Source: Patescibacteria group bacterium
GTDB taxonomy: Bacteria; Patescibacteriota; Minisyncoccia; Phycocordibacterales; UBA6065
Length of the DNA: 33,476 nucleotides
Assembly: GCA_038063975.1 (NCBI GenBank)
Contig: JBBTTY010000028.1
Location: 1-33,476, forward strand
Direction: 5' to 3'
Below, one piece after another: positions 17,689 through 33,476 of the stretch. The notes below the pieces were generated by a model. It was given only the letters and a program-made list of their open reading frames with translations. It did not search any database and was not told the origin of the DNA. Both the position numbers and the translations under genes were made by a program. Position 1 is the stretch's first letter. Each line of letters begins with the position of its first letter.

Positions 17689-17772
17689 GCCGAGGTGGCG
17701 AAATGGCAACCGCAATCGACTCAAAATCGATCGTCGCAAGACTTGAGGGTTCGAGTCCCTCCCTCGGCACCA
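17689..17772 (+). tRNA. tRNA-Leu(CAA)
   Basis: GCCGAGG/CCTCGGC acceptor, CT-CAA-AA loop, long variable arm, CCA encoded. Confidence 0.95.
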
Positions 17773-17777
17773 AAAAA

Positions 17778-18677
17778 ATGAGCAAAAATAAGTTTCCGAA
17801 AATTGTTGTGATTCTCGGGCCTACGGCCACGGGCAAAAGTGATCTCGCTGTCTATATCGCAAAAAAATTCAAAGGCGAAGTGATTTCGGCTGATTCGAGA
17901 CAGGTTTACGAAGGTATGGATATCGGATCTGGAAAAATTACGAAAAAGGAGATGGAAAACATTCCCCACCACCTCCTCGACATAATTGATCCAAAGAAAG
18001 TCTATAACGCCGAGCAGTTCAAGAGAGATGGGACAAAAGCGATACAAGACATTTTGGATCATAAAAAACTGCCTATCATATGTGGCGGTACAGGATTTTA
18101 TATTGATGCTCTAGTTTTTGATGAACAATTTCCCGACGTGCCACCTAATAAAAAGCTTAGAAAAGAACTTGAAAAGAAATCTGTTGAGAGCTTGATGAAA
18201 GAAATAAGGAAGCTTGATCCTGTCCGCGCGAAAGCTCTGGATCCATATAACAAAGTCCGCATCATCCGCGCCATAGAAATCGCTAGAGTTTTGGGCAAAG
18301 TACCAAAAGTAAAACGTACAAAACAATATGAAGCACTTTTTATTGGCCTTACATTGGATCGCAGTAAATTACGAGAAAGAATTCATGCACGCCTCGAGAA
18401 GCGTATGAAAGCCGGCATGATTCGAGAAATTTCAAATCTTCACAAAAATGGTGTGTCTTGGAAACGCCTCTATGATTTCGGTCTAGAATACCGCTACGTT
18501 TCGCTTTATCTACAAAAGAAACTATCAAAAGAAGAAATGCTCACCAAACTCGAGCAAGAAATCTGCCAATTTTCCAAGCGACAGATGCAATGGTTTAAAA
18601 GAAATAAAAACATAAAATGGTTCGCGCCTTTTGCATATATTGCGGTTGAAAAAATTGTAAAGAAATTTCTCAAATAA
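17778..18677 (+). CDS. miaA: tRNA dimethylallyltransferase
   Basis: GPTATGKS, ISADSRQVY, GGTGFYI, SKRQMQWF. Start at ATG 17778, after the tRNA. Confidence 0.95.
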   Translation: MSKNKFPKIVVILGPTATGKSDLAVYIAKKFKGEVISADSRQVYEGMDIGSGKITKKEMENIPHHLLDIIDPKKVYNAEQFKRDGTKAIQDILDHKKLPIICGGTGFYIDALVFDEQFPDVPPNKKLRKELEKKSVESLMKEIRKLDPVRAKALDPYNKVRIIRAIEIARVLGKVPKVKRTKQYEALFIGLTLDRSKLRERIHARLEKRMKAGMIREISNLHKNGVSWKRLYDFGLEYRYVSLYLQKKLSKEEMLTKLEQEICQFSKRQMQWFKRNKNIKWFAPFAYIAVEKIVKKFLK

Positions 18678-20289: not shown

Positions 20290-20952
20290 TTACTTAATTA
20301 TTCGAAAATACTGTCTAGCGATTTCAAGAAGTTCTCGACCAATCGCAGCATCATGATATCTAACAGTAGCACAACCCTGATATCCCACTCTTTTGTTAAT
20401 TCCGCCCTCTTTTTTTATATAACTTTTAATAAAATTAACCTGTGGTATATCGGTTATATTGGACCAAAAAGTCTTTTGGGTCTTTTCGTCATGATAACTA
20501 TGCAAATGAACACATACCCTAAACCTCGATTCGTCTAGATTGAAACCATCTCTCAGTAAAGATAAAAATATTCGCATAAGTTCAGAACTAGAATTTGTAA
20601 ACGTCATTCCATGTTTTATAGATTTCTCTCCCTCACAATAGTAAATAAGAGCGCACATTAGCTTTTTTTGCTGTTTGGTTGCCGTTGGTATTGCTCTCAG
20701 AGTTTCCTTAGCTTTTTCGCTCGCCTCTACTTCACGAATTATTCTTTTTTTAGACAAAGTTAAACCAGCTCTTTTATTACCTTCAATTTTAAGTCTCTCT
20801 ATTCTATTTTTTGCGTGCAGACTTAGAATAATTCCCCTCAACCAAATGGAAAGTGTACTCTTAGAGATTTTAACTGAATGTGAAATCTCATTTATAGATT
20901 GTCCCGTTTTTCGTAAACTGATCGCCTTGTTTTTAACTTCATTACTGAACAT
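20290..20952 (-). CDS. HTH plus single LAGLIDADG-like domain protein
   Basis: N-terminal HTH (LRKTGQSINEISHSVKISKSTLSIWL); ALIYYCEGEK followed by FTNSS and FWSNIT, resembling a LAGLIDADG helix. Confidence 0.6.
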   Translation of the reverse strand: MFSNEVKNKAISLRKTGQSINEISHSVKISKSTLSIWLRGIILSLHAKNRIERLKIEGNKRAGLTLSKKRIIREVEASEKAKETLRAIPTATKQQKKLMCALIYYCEGEKSIKHGMTFTNSSSELMRIFLSLLRDGFNLDESRFRVCVHLHSYHDEKTQKTFWSNITDIPQVNFIKSYIKKEGGINKRVGYQGCATVRYHDAAIGRELLEIARQYFRIIK

Positions 20953-21028
20953 ATAAGTATAGTTACATTAGTATACATTATACTATCTATTTTCAATGAA
21001 GTATGTAGTATGTTATGCTTTTTTTGTT

Positions 21029-21100
21029 GGGCCTGTAGTTTCAATGGTAAAACATCTCACTCCAAACGAGAGGTTCCCCGTTCGAGTCGGGGCGGGCCCG
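21029..21100 (+). tRNA. tRNA-Trp(CCA)
   Basis: GGGCCTG/CGGGCCC acceptor, CT-CCA-AA loop, TTCGAGT T-loop. Confidence 0.9.
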
Positions 21101-21103
21101 CAT

Positions 21104-21619
21104 ATGACAGACACAGAACAAAAAGTTCTCAAAGCCCTAAAATTAATCATTCCCGCTCTAGAAAAGTATGATTTCAAATGGGTGATCACAGGTGGTTTCG
21201 CTTCGCATGTTTACGGTGTAAATCGTCCAATAACAGATATCGATATAGACATCGATACAAGCAAAGATTCACCGGACTTTAAAAATCTAATCAGAGACCT
21301 CAAAAAATATACTACCCAACCTCTGGAGCACTTTGTCGACCAAAATTATGATAACTACAACTTCGAAATTACTTTGGACGGTATTGTGATAGACATATGT
21401 CCCATGAAAGAAATGTGTATATATGACAAGAAAACTTCAAAGTACACACCCTTCTACCAAATAGGATTTCCTGATTCAAAAGTTATTGGATGGAAAAGTC
21501 TAAACCTTCCCCTATTGTCAAAAGAACTTATTATAAAAAACAAAGAAATGCTGTTTTGGCAAAGAGAGTCAGACTTAAAAGATATCGAGAATTTGAAAAA
21601 ATTGAGCCAGAGAACATAA
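21104..21619 (+). CDS. Pol-beta-superfamily nucleotidyltransferase
   Basis: WVITGGFA..RPITDIDID (GG plus DxD), later IDI. Start at ATG 21104, after the tRNA. Confidence 0.7.
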   Translation: MTDTEQKVLKALKLIIPALEKYDFKWVITGGFASHVYGVNRPITDIDIDIDTSKDSPDFKNLIRDLKKYTTQPLEHFVDQNYDNYNFEITLDGIVIDICPMKEMCIYDKKTSKYTPFYQIGFPDSKVIGWKSLNLPLLSKELIIKNKEMLFWQRESDLKDIENLKKLSQRT

Positions 21620-30340: not shown

Positions 30341-30439
30341 GGTGCCTTGCGTAATGAAATTTTTCTACGTTCGGGGGGATCCTCTCCAAGAGTCGATTCA
30401 CCCCCTCTCACGAGATAAAATTTCATTACGCAAGGCACC
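30341..30439. repeat. Long palindromic element upstream of infB
   Basis: Perfect 23-bp inverted repeat GGTGCCTTGCGTAATGAAATTTT (30341-30363 / 30417-30439) with inner GGGGG/CCCCC and CTCT/AGAG stems. Confidence 0.8.
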
Positions 30440-30449
30440 CCACAAAAAC

Positions 30450-32009
30450 ATGGCCAAAAAATCCTCACAACAAAATACGCTCAAACCAATTGTTCCAGCG
30501 AATCGCATAAAACGTCCGCCTGTGGTCGCTGTCATGGGTCATATTGACCATGGCAAATCAACTCTCTTAGATTACATCAGAAAAACCAATATTGTAGAAA
30601 GCGAAGTCGGCGGTATCACCCAATGCATCAGCGCTTATGAAGTGGTGCGAGAAAAAAAAGACTCGCCGAGCGACAAAACGGCGGCCGAACGCATTACATT
30701 CATAGACACCCCAGGACACGAGGCCTTCTCTGGCATGAGAGAACGTGGTGCGGTTACGGCGGATATAGCCATACTAGTAGTATCAGCCGAAGACGGCGTG
30801 AAAAAACAGACTCTCGAAGCATACAGACAGATAAGTGAGGCAAAGATCCCTATGATCGTGGCTATAAACAAAATTGACAAACCTTCAGCTGATTTGGAGC
30901 GCACCAAAATGTCTCTAACCGAAAATGAAATCTATTTGGAAGGATACGGAGGTTCGATTTCTTATGTTCCCATTTCTGCCAAAACAGGAACAGGTATAGA
31001 AGAACTCCTAGACCTTATTATCCTTACGGCAGATGTATCAGAGCTCACTGGTGATTTGTCTAAACCGGCAGAAGGCACAATCATAGAAGCCCATCGCGAT
31101 CCGAAAAAAGGCATATCGGCGACGCTAGTTATAAAAGACGGCTCTCTCTCGGCAGGCATGTTTGTAGCATCAGGAGAAAGCTTTTCCCCTACTCGCATAA
31201 TAGAAGACAGTTTAGGCAAGAAAATCACCTCTGCAAGATTTTCCAGTCCAATTAGAATCATAGGTTGGAATATGGCGCCGAAAGTTGGCAGTCTCTTTGT
31301 GACACTGACTACAAAGAGAGAGCTCGAAAATCATATCGAATCAGTCAAAGAGAAAAAGAAAAATACTGTTGCGCTTCCGCGATTTAGAGCAGAAGTAAAT
31401 GATAAAAAAATTCTGCCAGTCATTATAAAAGCCGATGTCTTGGGATCAGTTGAAGTCATAGAGCATGAAATCAAAAAAATCAAGAGCGATCGTGTGGCTA
31501 TAAAAATTCTCTTTGCTTCGATCGGTGATATAACCGAATCAGATGTAAAGGTTGCTGGTAGTGACAAAGAAACGGTAGTTCTTGGTTTCAATGTAAAAAC
31601 AGACAGTCAGGCGATGGCCATGATCGAAAGACTCGGTTTTGAACATGTCGATTTTGACATTATATACAAACTCATAGAATGGCTATCTGCGAAAGTACTA
31701 GAGCGCACACCGAAAATAGCCACAGAAGAAATACGAGGCAAGGCCAAAATCATGAGATTTTTCAGCCGTACGCGCGACAAACAAATCGTCGGTGGCAAAG
31801 TGACTAATGGCGAGATTCATATAGGAGACAAAGTCAAAATAATTCGTCGTGAGACTATTATAGGTGAAGGTGTCATCCGTGAACTCCAACAAGCAAAAGT
31901 AAAAGTAGCGAACGTAAACGAGGGCTTTGAATTCGGCACCATGATAGAAGCCAAAATAGAAATTGCTCCGGGCGATGTCGTAGAAGATTTTGTAATCGTA
32001 GAAAAATAG
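30450..32009 (+). CDS. infB: Translation initiation factor IF-2 (short, lacking the N-terminal domain)
   Basis: RPPVVAVMGHIDHGKST, DTPGHEAF, NKID, KADVLGS. Start at ATG 30450, after the palindrome. Confidence 0.95.
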   Translation: MAKKSSQQNTLKPIVPANRIKRPPVVAVMGHIDHGKSTLLDYIRKTNIVESEVGGITQCISAYEVVREKKDSPSDKTAAERITFIDTPGHEAFSGMRERGAVTADIAILVVSAEDGVKKQTLEAYRQISEAKIPMIVAINKIDKPSADLERTKMSLTENEIYLEGYGGSISYVPISAKTGTGIEELLDLIILTADVSELTGDLSKPAEGTIIEAHRDPKKGISATLVIKDGSLSAGMFVASGESFSPTRIIEDSLGKKITSARFSSPIRIIGWNMAPKVGSLFVTLTTKRELENHIESVKEKKKNTVALPRFRAEVNDKKILPVIIKADVLGSVEVIEHEIKKIKSDRVAIKILFASIGDITESDVKVAGSDKETVVLGFNVKTDSQAMAMIERLGFEHVDFDIIYKLIEWLSAKVLERTPKIATEEIRGKAKIMRFFSRTRDKQIVGGKVTNGEIHIGDKVKIIRRETIIGEGVIRELQQAKVKVANVNEGFEFGTMIEAKIEIAPGDVVEDFVIVEK

Positions 32010-32030: not shown

Positions 32031-32348
32031 ATGTCATATAAAAAAGACAGATTTGATGAAGTGATACGCGACCACGCCGCGCGATTTTTTTCTATGGAAT
32101 CAAATCGCACATCTATGATTACAATTACCAAAATTACTTCGACCGACAAAGGCGACAGAGTAACTGTCTACTTCACCGTCTATCCGGAAAACCGAGAAGA
32201 AGCGGCTCTGGATTTCGCCCGGAGAAAACGGAGTGATTTCCGCAATTTCGTCAGAGATAATTCACGTCTCTCCATCATTCCCTTTTTTGAATTTGAAATC
32301 GATCGTGGCGAAAAGGCTCGCCAGAAAATTGACGCTATCGCTTTATAA
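32031..32348 (+). CDS. rbfA: Ribosome-binding factor A
   Basis: Follows infB; ITITKI..VYFT..IPFFEFEIDRG. Confidence 0.8.
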   Translation: MSYKKDRFDEVIRDHAARFFSMESNRTSMITITKITSTDKGDRVTVYFTVYPENREEAALDFARRKRSDFRNFVRDNSRLSIIPFFEFEIDRGEKARQKIDAIAL

Positions 32349-32349
32349 T

Positions 32350-32378
32350 TTGCAGTGCACAAGTTTACCACCTATACT
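32350..32378 (+). promoter_or_regulatory. sigma70 promoter for the LAGLIDADG gene and tRNA cluster
   Basis: TTGCAG, 17 nt spacer, TATACT; ATG 32386 lies at the expected +1. Confidence 0.65.
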
Positions 32379-32407
32379 TTAGTGTATGGGAATACGATAC
32401 GCAGTAA

Positions 32408-33145
32408 ATGAAAGTTTTTTTCAACAAGTGGAATCCGAAAATGGCTTATACCCTCGGGTATATTTTTGCCGATGGATGTCTTCAAGATTTACCGAAACTC
32501 AGAGGAAAATATATCAGTGTCATAAGCACAGATAAAGAAACCATCCGGAGATTAAAAAATTGGATGGATTCTGAACACACTATTGTTCCACGAAAATCTA
32601 CTCATCCAAATGGAAAAATGAAATATTTACTTCGGATTGGTAACGCCAATCTATATAAATCTTTAGAAAAAAGAGGATTATACCCAAACAAATCGCTTAC
32701 CATCAGATTTCCAAAAGTTCCTTCACATATGCTTCGATATTTTATCTTAGGCTATTTCGATGGAGATGGATGTATCGCTTTAGAAAAAATTAAGAGAAAA
32801 TCTGGCAAGATTCGAACTAAAAAATTGGGTGCCATTTTTACTTCCGGAAGTCCTCTATTTCTCCAAGATTTATCAGAACAAATTTCGTTTGCGATTGGTA
32901 TAAAAACACAAAAAGTACTAAAAACATGGACTGCTTATCAACTCAGATATTCGACAATAGATAGTGAAACTTTATTCCAATTTATGTATAAAAAATCACA
33001 CAAAAACGAGTTTTTAAAAAGAAAATATGATATATTCAAAGAGTATCTTTCAATGAAAAAAAGACCCAGTGGCGAAGTTGGTCAACGCGACGGTCTGCAA
33101 AACCGTTATGCGCCGGTTCGATCCCGGCCTGGGTCTCTCGGTTAA
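32408..33145 (+). CDS. Free-standing double-motif LAGLIDADG homing endonuclease-like protein (ancestral start probably 32386)
   Basis: AYTLGYIFADGCL and FILGYFDGDGCI motifs, PNKSLT, LKRKY. The reading frame runs through tRNA-Cys. Confidence 0.85.
   Translation: MKVFFNKWNPKMAYTLGYIFADGCLQDLPKLRGKYISVISTDKETIRRLKNWMDSEHTIVPRKSTHPNGKMKYLLRIGNANLYKSLEKRGLYPNKSLTIRFPKVPSHMLRYFILGYFDGDGCIALEKIKRKSGKIRTKKLGAIFTSGSPLFLQDLSEQISFAIGIKTQKVLKTWTAYQLRYSTIDSETLFQFMYKKSHKNEFLKRKYDIFKEYLSMKKRPSGEVGQRDGLQNRYAPVRSRPGSLG
33063..33136 (+). tRNA. tRNA-Cys(GCA)
   Basis: GACCCAG/CTGGGTC acceptor, CT-GCA-AA loop, U73 discriminator. Confidence 0.92.
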
Positions 33146-33146
33146 T

Positions 33147-33228
33147 GCCCGGGTGGCGGAACTGGTATACGCGCACGACTTAAAATCGTGTCTCGAAAGG
33201 GATGTGGGTTCGATGCCCGCCCCGGGCA
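33147..33228 (+). tRNA. tRNA-Leu(TAA)
   Basis: GCCCGGG/CCCGGGC acceptor, CT-TAA-AA loop, long variable arm. Confidence 0.94.
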
Positions 33229-33229
33229 C

Positions 33230-33376
33230 ATGACAATAAAACCGATTTGTGATTTTTGTAAAAAAGAATTAAAGAGCTTCGGCGCTTTGCTTTTCAGTCC
33301 ACCAAACAAAGCGAGTGCTGTAAAAAAATTCCATCTATGCAAAAATTGTTATAAAAAATTAATTGCGGAAAAGTAG
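33230..33376 (+). CDS. 48-aa CxxC..CxxC zinc-binding small protein
   Basis: MTIKPICDFCKKELKSFGALLFSPP..KFHLCKNCYKKL. Confidence 0.7.
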   Translation: MTIKPICDFCKKELKSFGALLFSPPNKASAVKKFHLCKNCYKKLIAEK

Positions 33377-33400
33377 AATTTCTGTTACATTTTTTTCATT

Positions 33401-33473
33401 CCGCCCTTAGCTCAGTTGGTAGAGCAGATCCCTCTTAAGGATAAGGTCGTAGGTTCGATCCCTACAGGGCGGA
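33401..33473 (+). tRNA. tRNA-Lys(CTT)
   Basis: CCGCCCT/AGGGCGG acceptor, AGCTCAGTTGGTAGAGC D-arm, CT-CTT-AA loop. Confidence 0.94.
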
Positions 33474-33476
33474 CAA

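Follow-up and report, generated by a model that had tools for sequence, protein, structure and literature searches.

A LAGLIDADG homing-endonuclease gene set against tRNA-Cys in Patescibacteria: a probable mobile cassette with its own promoter and tRNA allele

Why should a gene of the LAGLIDADG endonuclease family run, with no stop codon of its own, straight through the only tRNA-Cys gene of a groundwater bacterium with a very small genome? The question is raised by contig JBBTTY010000028.1 (C28) of the Patescibacteria group bacterium assembly GCA_038063975.1, all 33,476 nucleotides (nt) of which are hereafter called the window. The genome amounts to 611 kb at 97.5% completeness, and its relatives are labelled Patescibacteria/Candidate Phyla Radiation (CPR). 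A first-pass annotation, made from the letters of the DNA, had described the gene as an intron-less selfish element sheltering in the disposable leader of a precursor tRNA (pre-tRNA). The answer proposed here is that positions 32349-33137 form a free-standing ("intronless") Patescibacteria LAGLIDADG homing-endonuclease cassette, composed of a conserved promoter, a probably leaderless gene and its own tRNA-Cys(GCA), a reading to which we give a probability of about three in four. The features on which the argument depends are the following.

32031-32348, + strand: rbfA, the upstream host gene (Pfam RBFA, E 3e-9)
32346-32348, + strand: TAA stop codon of rbfA, the left edge of homology with the empty sister allele G007 in a three-way alignment
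32349-33137, + strand: inferred mobile cassette of promoter, endonuclease gene and foreign tRNA-Cys, delimited by the alignment of G000 (the window genome), G010 and G007 and by tRNA identities
32349-32378, + strand: promoter-like element P1, with TTGCAG at 32350-32355, a 17-nt spacer and TATACT at 32373-32378
32408-33145, + strand: main LAGLIDADG reading frame, 245 codons and TAA (Pfam LAGLIDADG_3)
32453-32479, + strand: LAGLIDADG motif 1, with Asp22 at 32471-32473
32747-32773, + strand: LAGLIDADG motif 2, with Asp120 at 32765-32767
33063-33137, + strand: tRNA-Cys(gca), cassette-type allele, the sole tRNA-Cys gene in the genome (ARAGORN and Rfam)

The protein encoded by the main open reading frame (ORF) matches Pfam LAGLIDADG_3 in two stretches (E 1.7e-10; 41.5 bits against a cut-off of 22.5). 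The acidic residues that end the two motifs, D22 and D120, are invariant in all 30 sequences of an alignment comprising the window protein and 29 of the 120 homologues listed from 292 matches. An AlphaFold2 model (predicted local distance difference test, pLDDT, 87.7; predicted template-modelling score, pTM, 0.84) is confident to about residue 221 and places two alpha-beta-beta-alpha-beta-beta-alpha domains in one chain. In Foldseek, this model retrieved 139 PDB matches at E ≤ 0.001, headed by I-Tsp061I (2dch, E 1e-9) and followed by I-AniI, intein endonucleases, I-SmaMI and I-SceI; a profile search of PDB sequences likewise gave 2dch as its first match (E 3.1e-8). The gene lies in neither an intron nor an intein, since it sits between the rbfA stop codon and tRNA-Cys, and Rfam at gathering thresholds finds seven tRNAs and nothing else in the whole window, hence no intron family. 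By family and predicted fold it is thus an intron-less, free-standing, monomeric two-motif LAGLIDADG homing endonuclease, and Pfam, ARAGORN and Rfam bear out the earlier description of such a gene between a promoter-like box and tRNA-Cys. NCBIfam offered nothing useful for this protein or for the protein encoded beside tRNA-Trp that is discussed below.

The position of the gene is a property of its family. Three further host genes recur in the comparison.

30342-32009, + strand: infB, 5' of rbfA
33147-33229, + strand: tRNA-Leu(taa), the next gene of the tRNA operon (ARAGORN and Rfam)
33401-33474, + strand: tRNA-Lys(ctt), the third tRNA of the operon (ARAGORN and Rfam)

A scan of one genome per species returned 460 pattern matches, 400 of which were confirmed, and the best 80 by likeness to the query were examined. 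A tRNA-Cys(gca) gene stands directly 3' of the reading frame on the same strand in 78 of these 80 related loci, and in the other two the DNA ends first; the expectation that homologues would be linked to a tRNA was therefore correct. In 65 of the 78, the gene after tRNA-Cys on that strand is tRNA-Leu(taa). What lies upstream varies more, with same-strand infB in 55/80 loci and rbfA in 41/80, and in two further loci infB/rbfA lies downstream on the opposite strand. As a control, one of 80 distant relatives in viral contigs adjoins a tRNA. The viral contigs searched held relatives at 40% identity or less and none above 40%, and a phage vector was rejected on this ground and on the single tRNA-adjacent case.

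Within the genus, the site occurs in four allele states: intact, frameshifted, truncated and empty. Close orthologues were found in four of the 22 genus genomes, three being full length (one of them, that of the window, frameshifted) and one truncated. Intact frames of 225-228 codons are present in G018 and G001, and the remnant in G010 covers residues 127-207 only. In 13 genomes the locus is empty and reads infB-rbfA, a short spacer with a -10-like box, tRNA-Cys, tRNA-Leu and tRNA-Lys, with no endonuclease gene; in the remaining five the locus was not recovered. The empty rbfA-tRNA-Cys junctions anticipated in relatives thus exist, and presence or absence at one site is polymorphic among close relatives. 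Genomes of high quality (4-8 contigs, 98-100% completeness) are among those that do not carry the gene. In a tree of the C-terminus of IF2, the frameshifted (G000), remnant (G010) and empty (G007) genomes form one clade (100/100), G018 groups with five empty genomes (94/90) and G001 stands elsewhere, in a single-gene tree in which 11 of 15 inner branches are unresolved. The G010 remnant (L095 / L085) has a deletion that begins just past TTTACCAC in the spacer of the promoter and reaches about codon 126, and this allele keeps the cassette-type tRNA-Cys. In an even sample of 301 genomes from the phylum, 16 have a match at E ≤ 1e-30. In one phylum genome, G280, two contigs each carry a strong match to the endonuclease profile (E 3.5e-95 and 5.1e-66), and the first match alone was seen beside a tRNA-Cys pattern match.

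What was inserted, or exchanged, is larger than the gene. The alignment of G000, G010 and G007 is identical through the rbfA stop codon, then diverges, and regains likeness at the 3' end of tRNA-Cys, so that the cassette replaces about 17 nt and the native tRNA-Cys seen in G007. The tRNA-Cys genes of the 13 empty alleles are of one type, at least 82% identical to one another (median 92%), and the window tRNA-Cys is 63-76% identical to them. The same tRNA-Cys reaches 80-91% identity to 15 of the 78 genes linked to an endonuclease, and these 15 include some from distant hosts with an IF2 about half identical. The tRNA-Cys allele therefore co-varies with the presence of the gene, as a co-inherited flanking marker would. 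Because occupied alleles carry a foreign tRNA-Cys and a conserved promoter, the mobile unit is taken to be promoter, endonuclease gene and tRNA-Cys together, and the family appears, from these sequences, to carry the tRNA gene along when it moves. The picture of a selfish element in a disposable pre-tRNA leader consequently survives in part: the gene is intron-less and stands free before tRNA-Cys, but it brings its own promoter and tRNA-Cys allele and is more than a leader insertion. A search for a remnant of the native tRNA-Cys in the cassette gave zero matches at up to three mismatches, and no direct or inverted repeats were found at the edges 32349 or 33137. With neither target-site duplication nor terminal repeats at these edges, a transposon or insertion sequence was rejected, as was a retained native tRNA-Cys remnant or target-site duplication.

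A signal of transfer is also present in the proteins. Over 53 loci for which both genes were available, the endonucleases average 49.8% identity between pairs and the IF2 proteins, compared over their last 405 residues, 40.5%. The two measures correlate weakly (Spearman 0.24), and in some pairs the endonucleases are 84% identical and the IF2 proteins 48%. The higher conservation of the endonuclease than of IF2 in these genomes points to horizontal spread of the family. The ratio of nonsynonymous to synonymous substitution rates (dN/dS) is 0.05-0.15 in the five close pairs with a finite dS below 2.5.

The promoter was judged by its conservation. Element P1 was also found by a promoter scan, in which it reads as TTTGCA at 32349, an 18-nt spacer and TATACT ending at 32378. 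The number of sites in that scan is not above that of shuffled sequences (3 against 3.8 +/- 2.2), and the argument is therefore carried by the recurrence of the box across loci. The commonest box in relatives is TTGCAG, 17 nt, TATAAT and about 6 nt to the start codon. Among the 71 loci with a recognised start, 56 have a -10-like hexamer 4-10 nt before it and 54 have TGCA[GA] upstream (against 9/71 and 3/71 in control windows), while a Shine-Dalgarno-like motif occurs in five. Because TATACT stands 7 nt before the ATG at 32386, the endonuclease mRNA is probably leaderless. A second element near the tRNA also deserves attention.

33028-33036, + strand: extended -10-like TGATATATT in the last codons of the ORF, read from the sequence, a candidate separate promoter of the tRNA operon

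The form TGnTATATT is kept in all four cassette alleles of the genus, including the G010 remnant that has lost the upstream -10 box. Before tRNA-Cys, at -27 to -12, the 78 loci contain 77 -10-like hexamers where about 37 are expected, roughly a twofold enrichment. The bases of TGATATATT also encode conserved residues, for which reason its function is not decidable from sequence. A separate tRNA promoter inside the frame, which would count against the first-pass reading, accordingly has a candidate at these nine bases.

The reading-through that raised the question is best understood from the details of this particular copy.

32386-32535, + strand: frame opened by the family's true start codon, MGIRYAVNESFF..., which closes after 49 codons
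32415-32421, + strand: run of seven T with one extra T (+1 frameshift), from a DNA alignment with the orthologues L002 and L003
33062-33142, + strand: 27 codons (219-245) translated from tRNA-Cys and spacer, from the frame translation
33143-33145, + strand: TAA that ends the ORF, situated in the Cys-Leu spacer a single base (33146) short of tRNA-Leu

The family N-terminus, MGIKY.VNE.FF.KW, begins in the window at ATG 32386, and its peptide is divided between the 32386 frame and the 32408 frame by the one extra T. Owing to this +1 frameshift, the 32386 frame closes after 49 codons. The gene had been annotated as 32386-33228, and neither end can be kept: the ATG at 32386 belongs to the other frame, and 33228 falls at the end of tRNA-Leu rather than of the ORF. 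Logan contigs from four runs of two studies span 32340-32469 or more with zero differences and zero gaps; those of two runs extend over 32340-33112 with zero differences, and the two runs of the second study cover the 5' part, again with zero differences. Because four runs of two studies agree, the frameshift is real in the DNA and no slip of a single assembly. A full-length enzyme would thus be made from this copy only through slippage on the U run or through internal initiation at 32408 or 32441.

At the other end, the first in-frame stop (33143-33145) lies beyond the first base (+1) of the tRNA at 33063, so that no stop stands 5' of the RNase P site. That the frame crosses the entire tRNA-Cys in its last 27 or so codons, with TAA 1 nt before tRNA-Leu, was correctly observed in the first-pass annotation. 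Family homology of the window protein ends near residue 218. The 27-codon tail encoded by the tRNA and spacer resembles nothing in the family, and the model predicts disorder there, with a pLDDT below 50 at residues 222-245. At 74% identity, P0002 is the closest protein; it continues for 7 codons into the part encoded by the tRNA and ends there, and the next codon is CAA in the window and TAA, within the tRNA D-loop, in the G010 allele. Judging from the G010 allele, P0002 would stop at this D-loop TAA. Since CAA replaces the presumed D-loop TAA, the window frame runs on through the whole tRNA to the spacer TAA. Read-through does not reflect a design of the element, for just 6/78 related loci show it. 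It is an accident of the window allele; as a rule the family takes its stop codon from the D-loop of the tRNA. The window therefore holds a decaying copy, with its conserved N-terminus cut off by a +1 frameshift and CAA at its D-loop stop position.

Among the 78 loci, 48 have the stop within the tRNA, 24 have it 0-24 nt ahead of the tRNA and 6 have it past the 3' end. The final base of the stop is at tRNA position 18 in 26 loci and at position 21 in 9, and positions 7, 10, 13, 22 and 23 are also used. Whether homologues stop before the tRNA has accordingly a divided answer: 24/78 do, whereas 54/78 stop at or past +1, and all 78 are linked to tRNA-Cys. Many Patescibacteria tRNA-Cys genes (among them many of the endonuclease-linked ones, L010-L078) have a T-loop TGCRA, in which position 55 is G and not U, and an AG in the D-loop where GG is universal; the two changes look like co-variation of the tertiary pair 18:55. 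This G55 type was found in 43 of 301 phylum genomes, mostly those that do not have the endonuclease gene, and a control with the reversed pattern gave zero matches. The idea that the endonuclease forces tRNA-Cys into the A18/G55 form to gain a TAG stop was considered and rejected because only two of the 43 G55-type genomes have it adjacent to the endonuclease gene, G55 otherwise being mostly endonuclease-free, and because the GG form also provides a stop, a TAA one codon later in the same phase.

How such a unit could move may be sketched as follows; here we infer cleavage activity, a target site, co-transcription of gene and tRNA, and any effect of RNase P or transfer-messenger RNA (tmRNA). 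In an element-free genome, the enzyme would cut the native leader or the 5' half of tRNA-Cys, and repair would then introduce promoter, gene and a resistant allele of the tRNA, in the manner of the intronless homing of phage T4 SegB. The only tRNA-Cys gene of the host would thereby become element-borne. The insertion would do no harm, since the tRNA gene remains whole and RNase P presumably releases the tRNA. Gene and tRNA would be so close that the D-loop normally supplies the stop codon of the family, and with the stop inside the D-loop every full-length mRNA would have to run into the pre-tRNA.

This last point leads to another explanation of the overlap, the one offered in the first-pass annotation. 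It adds to the mobile-element reading and competes only with the view that the overlap is a by-product of close packing. The overlap would be a regulatory device, in which the mRNA serves as pre-tRNA leader, the RNase P cut at +1 removes the stop, and tmRNA and SmpB tag the product, thus limiting the dose of the nuclease. A transcript cut at +1 would indeed lack a stop in the window and in the 54 loci just mentioned; no terminator-like site occurs in 32200-33476; the genome has RNase P RNA (RF00010, 116 bits, cut-off 100), tmRNA (RF00023, 87 bits, cut-off 47) and SmpB (162 bits); and the codon phase relative to tRNA position 1 is common to 50 of the 78 loci. In mitochondrial tRNA punctuation, ORFs abut tRNAs and tRNA processing makes the mRNA ends. 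The likeness is that the cassette ORF runs up to or into the tRNA and that tRNA-processing enzymes would define its mRNA 3' end; in mitochondria, however, polyadenylation completes the stop, whereas the sequence left after a +1 cut in the cassette, which ends in A's, would give none. Against a regulatory device, the 24 loci that stop before the tRNA show the overlap to be dispensable to the family, the position of the stop varies from tRNA position 7 to 23, and ordinary tRNA D-loop sequence already supplies TAG or TAA stops. Dose control, proposed from sequence features, is therefore regarded as doubtful.

Several observations weigh against the proposal that the cassette is a mobile element homing into tRNA-Cys. 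The counts of related loci rest on the best 80 of the 400 confirmed, chosen by likeness to the query. The viral contigs searched gave no close relative (above 40% identity), and hence no known vector. The window copy may yield no full-length enzyme. A host function could also account for the strong purifying selection and for the endonuclease being better conserved than IF2. Within the genus, the identity of the window endonuclease to those of G018 and G001 is 64% and 59%, close to the 68% and 62-65% of IF2, and a C-terminal segment of about 20 residues is missing from every copy in the genus. A single old acquisition with later allele replacement explains these genus data as well as recent homing does.

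The latter points can be extended to the view that the locus is a fossil, left by one invasion of the ancestor of the genus that was followed by decay or replacement, with no present mobility in this lineage. The common C-terminal loss, the IF2-like divergence, the frameshift of the window copy and the truncation in G010 all agree with it. Yet the frames of G018 and G001 are intact over 225-228 codons, and elsewhere in the phylum the identity of the endonuclease is far above that of IF2. Moreover, because all 13 empty alleles carry the uniform native tRNA-Cys, each "loss" would have to be a recombinational replacement and not a deletion. A purely fossil element is for these reasons considered unlikely.

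A host function would take the form of a domesticated, vertically inherited LAGLIDADG protein, for example a regulator or processing factor of the tRNA-Cys operon, comparable to WhiA and the intron maturases, which are domesticated relatives sharing the LAGLIDADG fold. The constant position at tRNA-Cys in 78/80 loci, the low dN/dS and the mean identity above that of IF2 would all suit such a role. Domesticated LAGLIDADG forms typically lose the catalytic acidic residues. In contrast, the cassette family keeps both aspartates at the catalytic positions invariant. Close orthologues in 4/22 genus genomes and matches in 16/301 phylum genomes are also few for a host protein, its absence extends to the high-quality genomes, frameshifted and truncated copies are tolerated, and the correlation with host identity is weak (Spearman 0.24). 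Taken together, this makes domestication quite improbable. An assembly artefact, whether a chimeric junction formed at a tRNA repeat or an error in calling a homopolymer, is of negligible probability, for although metagenome contigs often break in tRNA genes and the Logan contigs here end at 33112, those of two runs span 32340-33112 without a difference, two runs of the second study agree over the 5' part, and the same arrangement recurs in 78 independent loci.

Other LAGLIDADG genes of the genus also lie against tRNAs. Pfam LAGLIDADG_3 occurs at 17 places in 10 of the 22 genus genomes. Thirteen of these 17 ORFs end between -130 and +60 nt from the start of a same-strand tRNA, namely Cys (3), Ser-gga (4), Ser-cga (1), Leu-gag (2), Leu-cag (1), Asp (1) and Pro (1); three lie directly after tRNA-Leu(caa), and one is within a 1083-codon frame. 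A LAGLIDADG_3 gene directly after tRNA-Leu(caa) was noted in G001, G010, G012 and G009; in the window, tRNA-Leu(caa) at 17689-17772 is followed after 5 nt by miaA (17778-18677), which resembles the empty site of another family. The gene near tRNA-Trp, which the first-pass annotation had joined with the tRNA-Cys gene in one tRNA-flank-homing system, is a less certain member.

20290-20952, - strand: tRNA-Trp neighbour, with an N-terminal helix-turn-helix and a probable single LAGLIDADG-like domain, divergent from tRNA-Trp (21029-21101)

Its family is patchy and multi-copy (up to four per genome) and occurs in 22 of 41 relatives. All 15 fetched loci adjoin a tRNA (Trp, Arg, Ile, Gln, Met, Tyr and others), and the five closest all adjoin tRNA-Trp. 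The orientation to tRNA-Trp is divergent in the window and G030 and convergent in G016, G009 and G015. The protein has no Pfam LAGLIDADG match, hhalign against the endonuclease profile gave a probability of 0.3%, and Foldseek returned no LAGLIDADG chain. A profile match to I-DmoI (E 0.024) was obtained, and in VIA-align residues 89-219 scored Z 6.8 with I-DmoI, 6.7 with E-DreI, 6.3 with an intein endonuclease and 6.0-6.2 with WhiA, all below the caution line of 8 of that tool. On these middling structural scores, the C-terminal domain may be LAGLIDADG-like. A tRNA-flank system is real because paralogues sit against other tRNAs; the gene at tRNA-Trp, which does not match Pfam LAGLIDADG, is a less secure part of it. 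The frame listed at 20996-21619 (+), on the other side, overlaps tRNA-Trp and likely starts at ATG 21104; its one resemblance in Pfam, to a nucleotidyltransferase-like family, is weak and falls short of the cut-off (Aminoglyc_resit, E 0.0017).

A bolder extension would turn the cassette into a tRNA-gene replacement drive. The element would cut the resident tRNA-Cys and install promoter, endonuclease gene and a cut-resistant tRNA-Cys, the overlap together with RNase P and tmRNA would keep the dose low, and sister families would act alike at Leu, Ser, Asp, Pro and Trp tRNAs, making such elements a hidden engine of tRNA-gene turnover in Patescibacteria. An element-borne sole tRNA-Cys could then not be lost by simple deletion. 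In this full form the idea is tentative, and the odds are against it.

Homing endonucleases are known mainly from introns, inteins and phage genomes. The closest known system is SegB of phage T4, a free-standing GIY-YIG homing endonuclease whose gene lies, as here, among tRNA genes, in the T4 tRNA gene cluster; according to its abstract, its recognition site includes a conserved tRNA motif, and it drives the inheritance of its own gene and of neighbouring tRNA genes, replacing the markers of the recipient (PMC2330249). Both systems co-transmit tRNA genes, the tRNA-Cys allele travelling with the endonuclease gene in the present case. SegB differs in being GIY-YIG rather than LAGLIDADG and in residing in a phage rather than a bacterial chromosome, and its abstract, unlike the account given here, mentions no overlap of ORF and tRNA, no borrowed stop codon and no element-borne promoter (PMC2330249). 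Cleavage is reported as demonstrated for SegB and is a prediction for the cassette enzyme. I-Tsp061I (2dch) and I-DmoI are monomeric two-motif enzymes of archaeal rRNA introns with the same two-domain fold and one acidic residue per motif, but they are intron-encoded and home into rRNA genes, while the cassette gene lies outside any intron. LAGLIDADG genes inserted in 16S and 23S rRNA genes of CPR bacteria share the phylum, the superfamily and a conserved RNA-gene target with the cassette (PMC11270868, PMC11809585, PMC7143001); as far as the text of these reports goes, they lie inside rRNA genes, unlike the tRNA-docked cassette. The main text of PMC11270868, supplements not included, contains no occurrence of "tRNA", and the literature searched, again exclusive of supplements, describes LAGLIDADG genes of this phylum within rRNA genes only. 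Within that literature, a tRNA-docked free-standing LAGLIDADG family is apparently undescribed.

The operon holds one more small frame, between tRNA-Leu and tRNA-Lys, a CxxC...CxxC (zinc-ribbon-like) ORF at 33188-33376 (+). Its listed start overlaps tRNA-Leu, and an ATG near 33230 is the likely true start; G012 has a 68%-identical stretch at the same place.

If the proposed cassette is correct, the chromosomes of bacteria with tiny genomes would carry free-standing LAGLIDADG elements that are made harmless by tRNA genes and not by introns, and that swap the tRNA allele and promoter of their host while moving. Annotation would be affected too, as the ORFs overlap tRNAs and borrow their stop codons. 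The family would also be a source of natural long-target nucleases aimed at conserved tRNA sequences. For the study of horizontal exchange in Patescibacteria, tRNA-Cys alleles would then serve as markers of past invasions.

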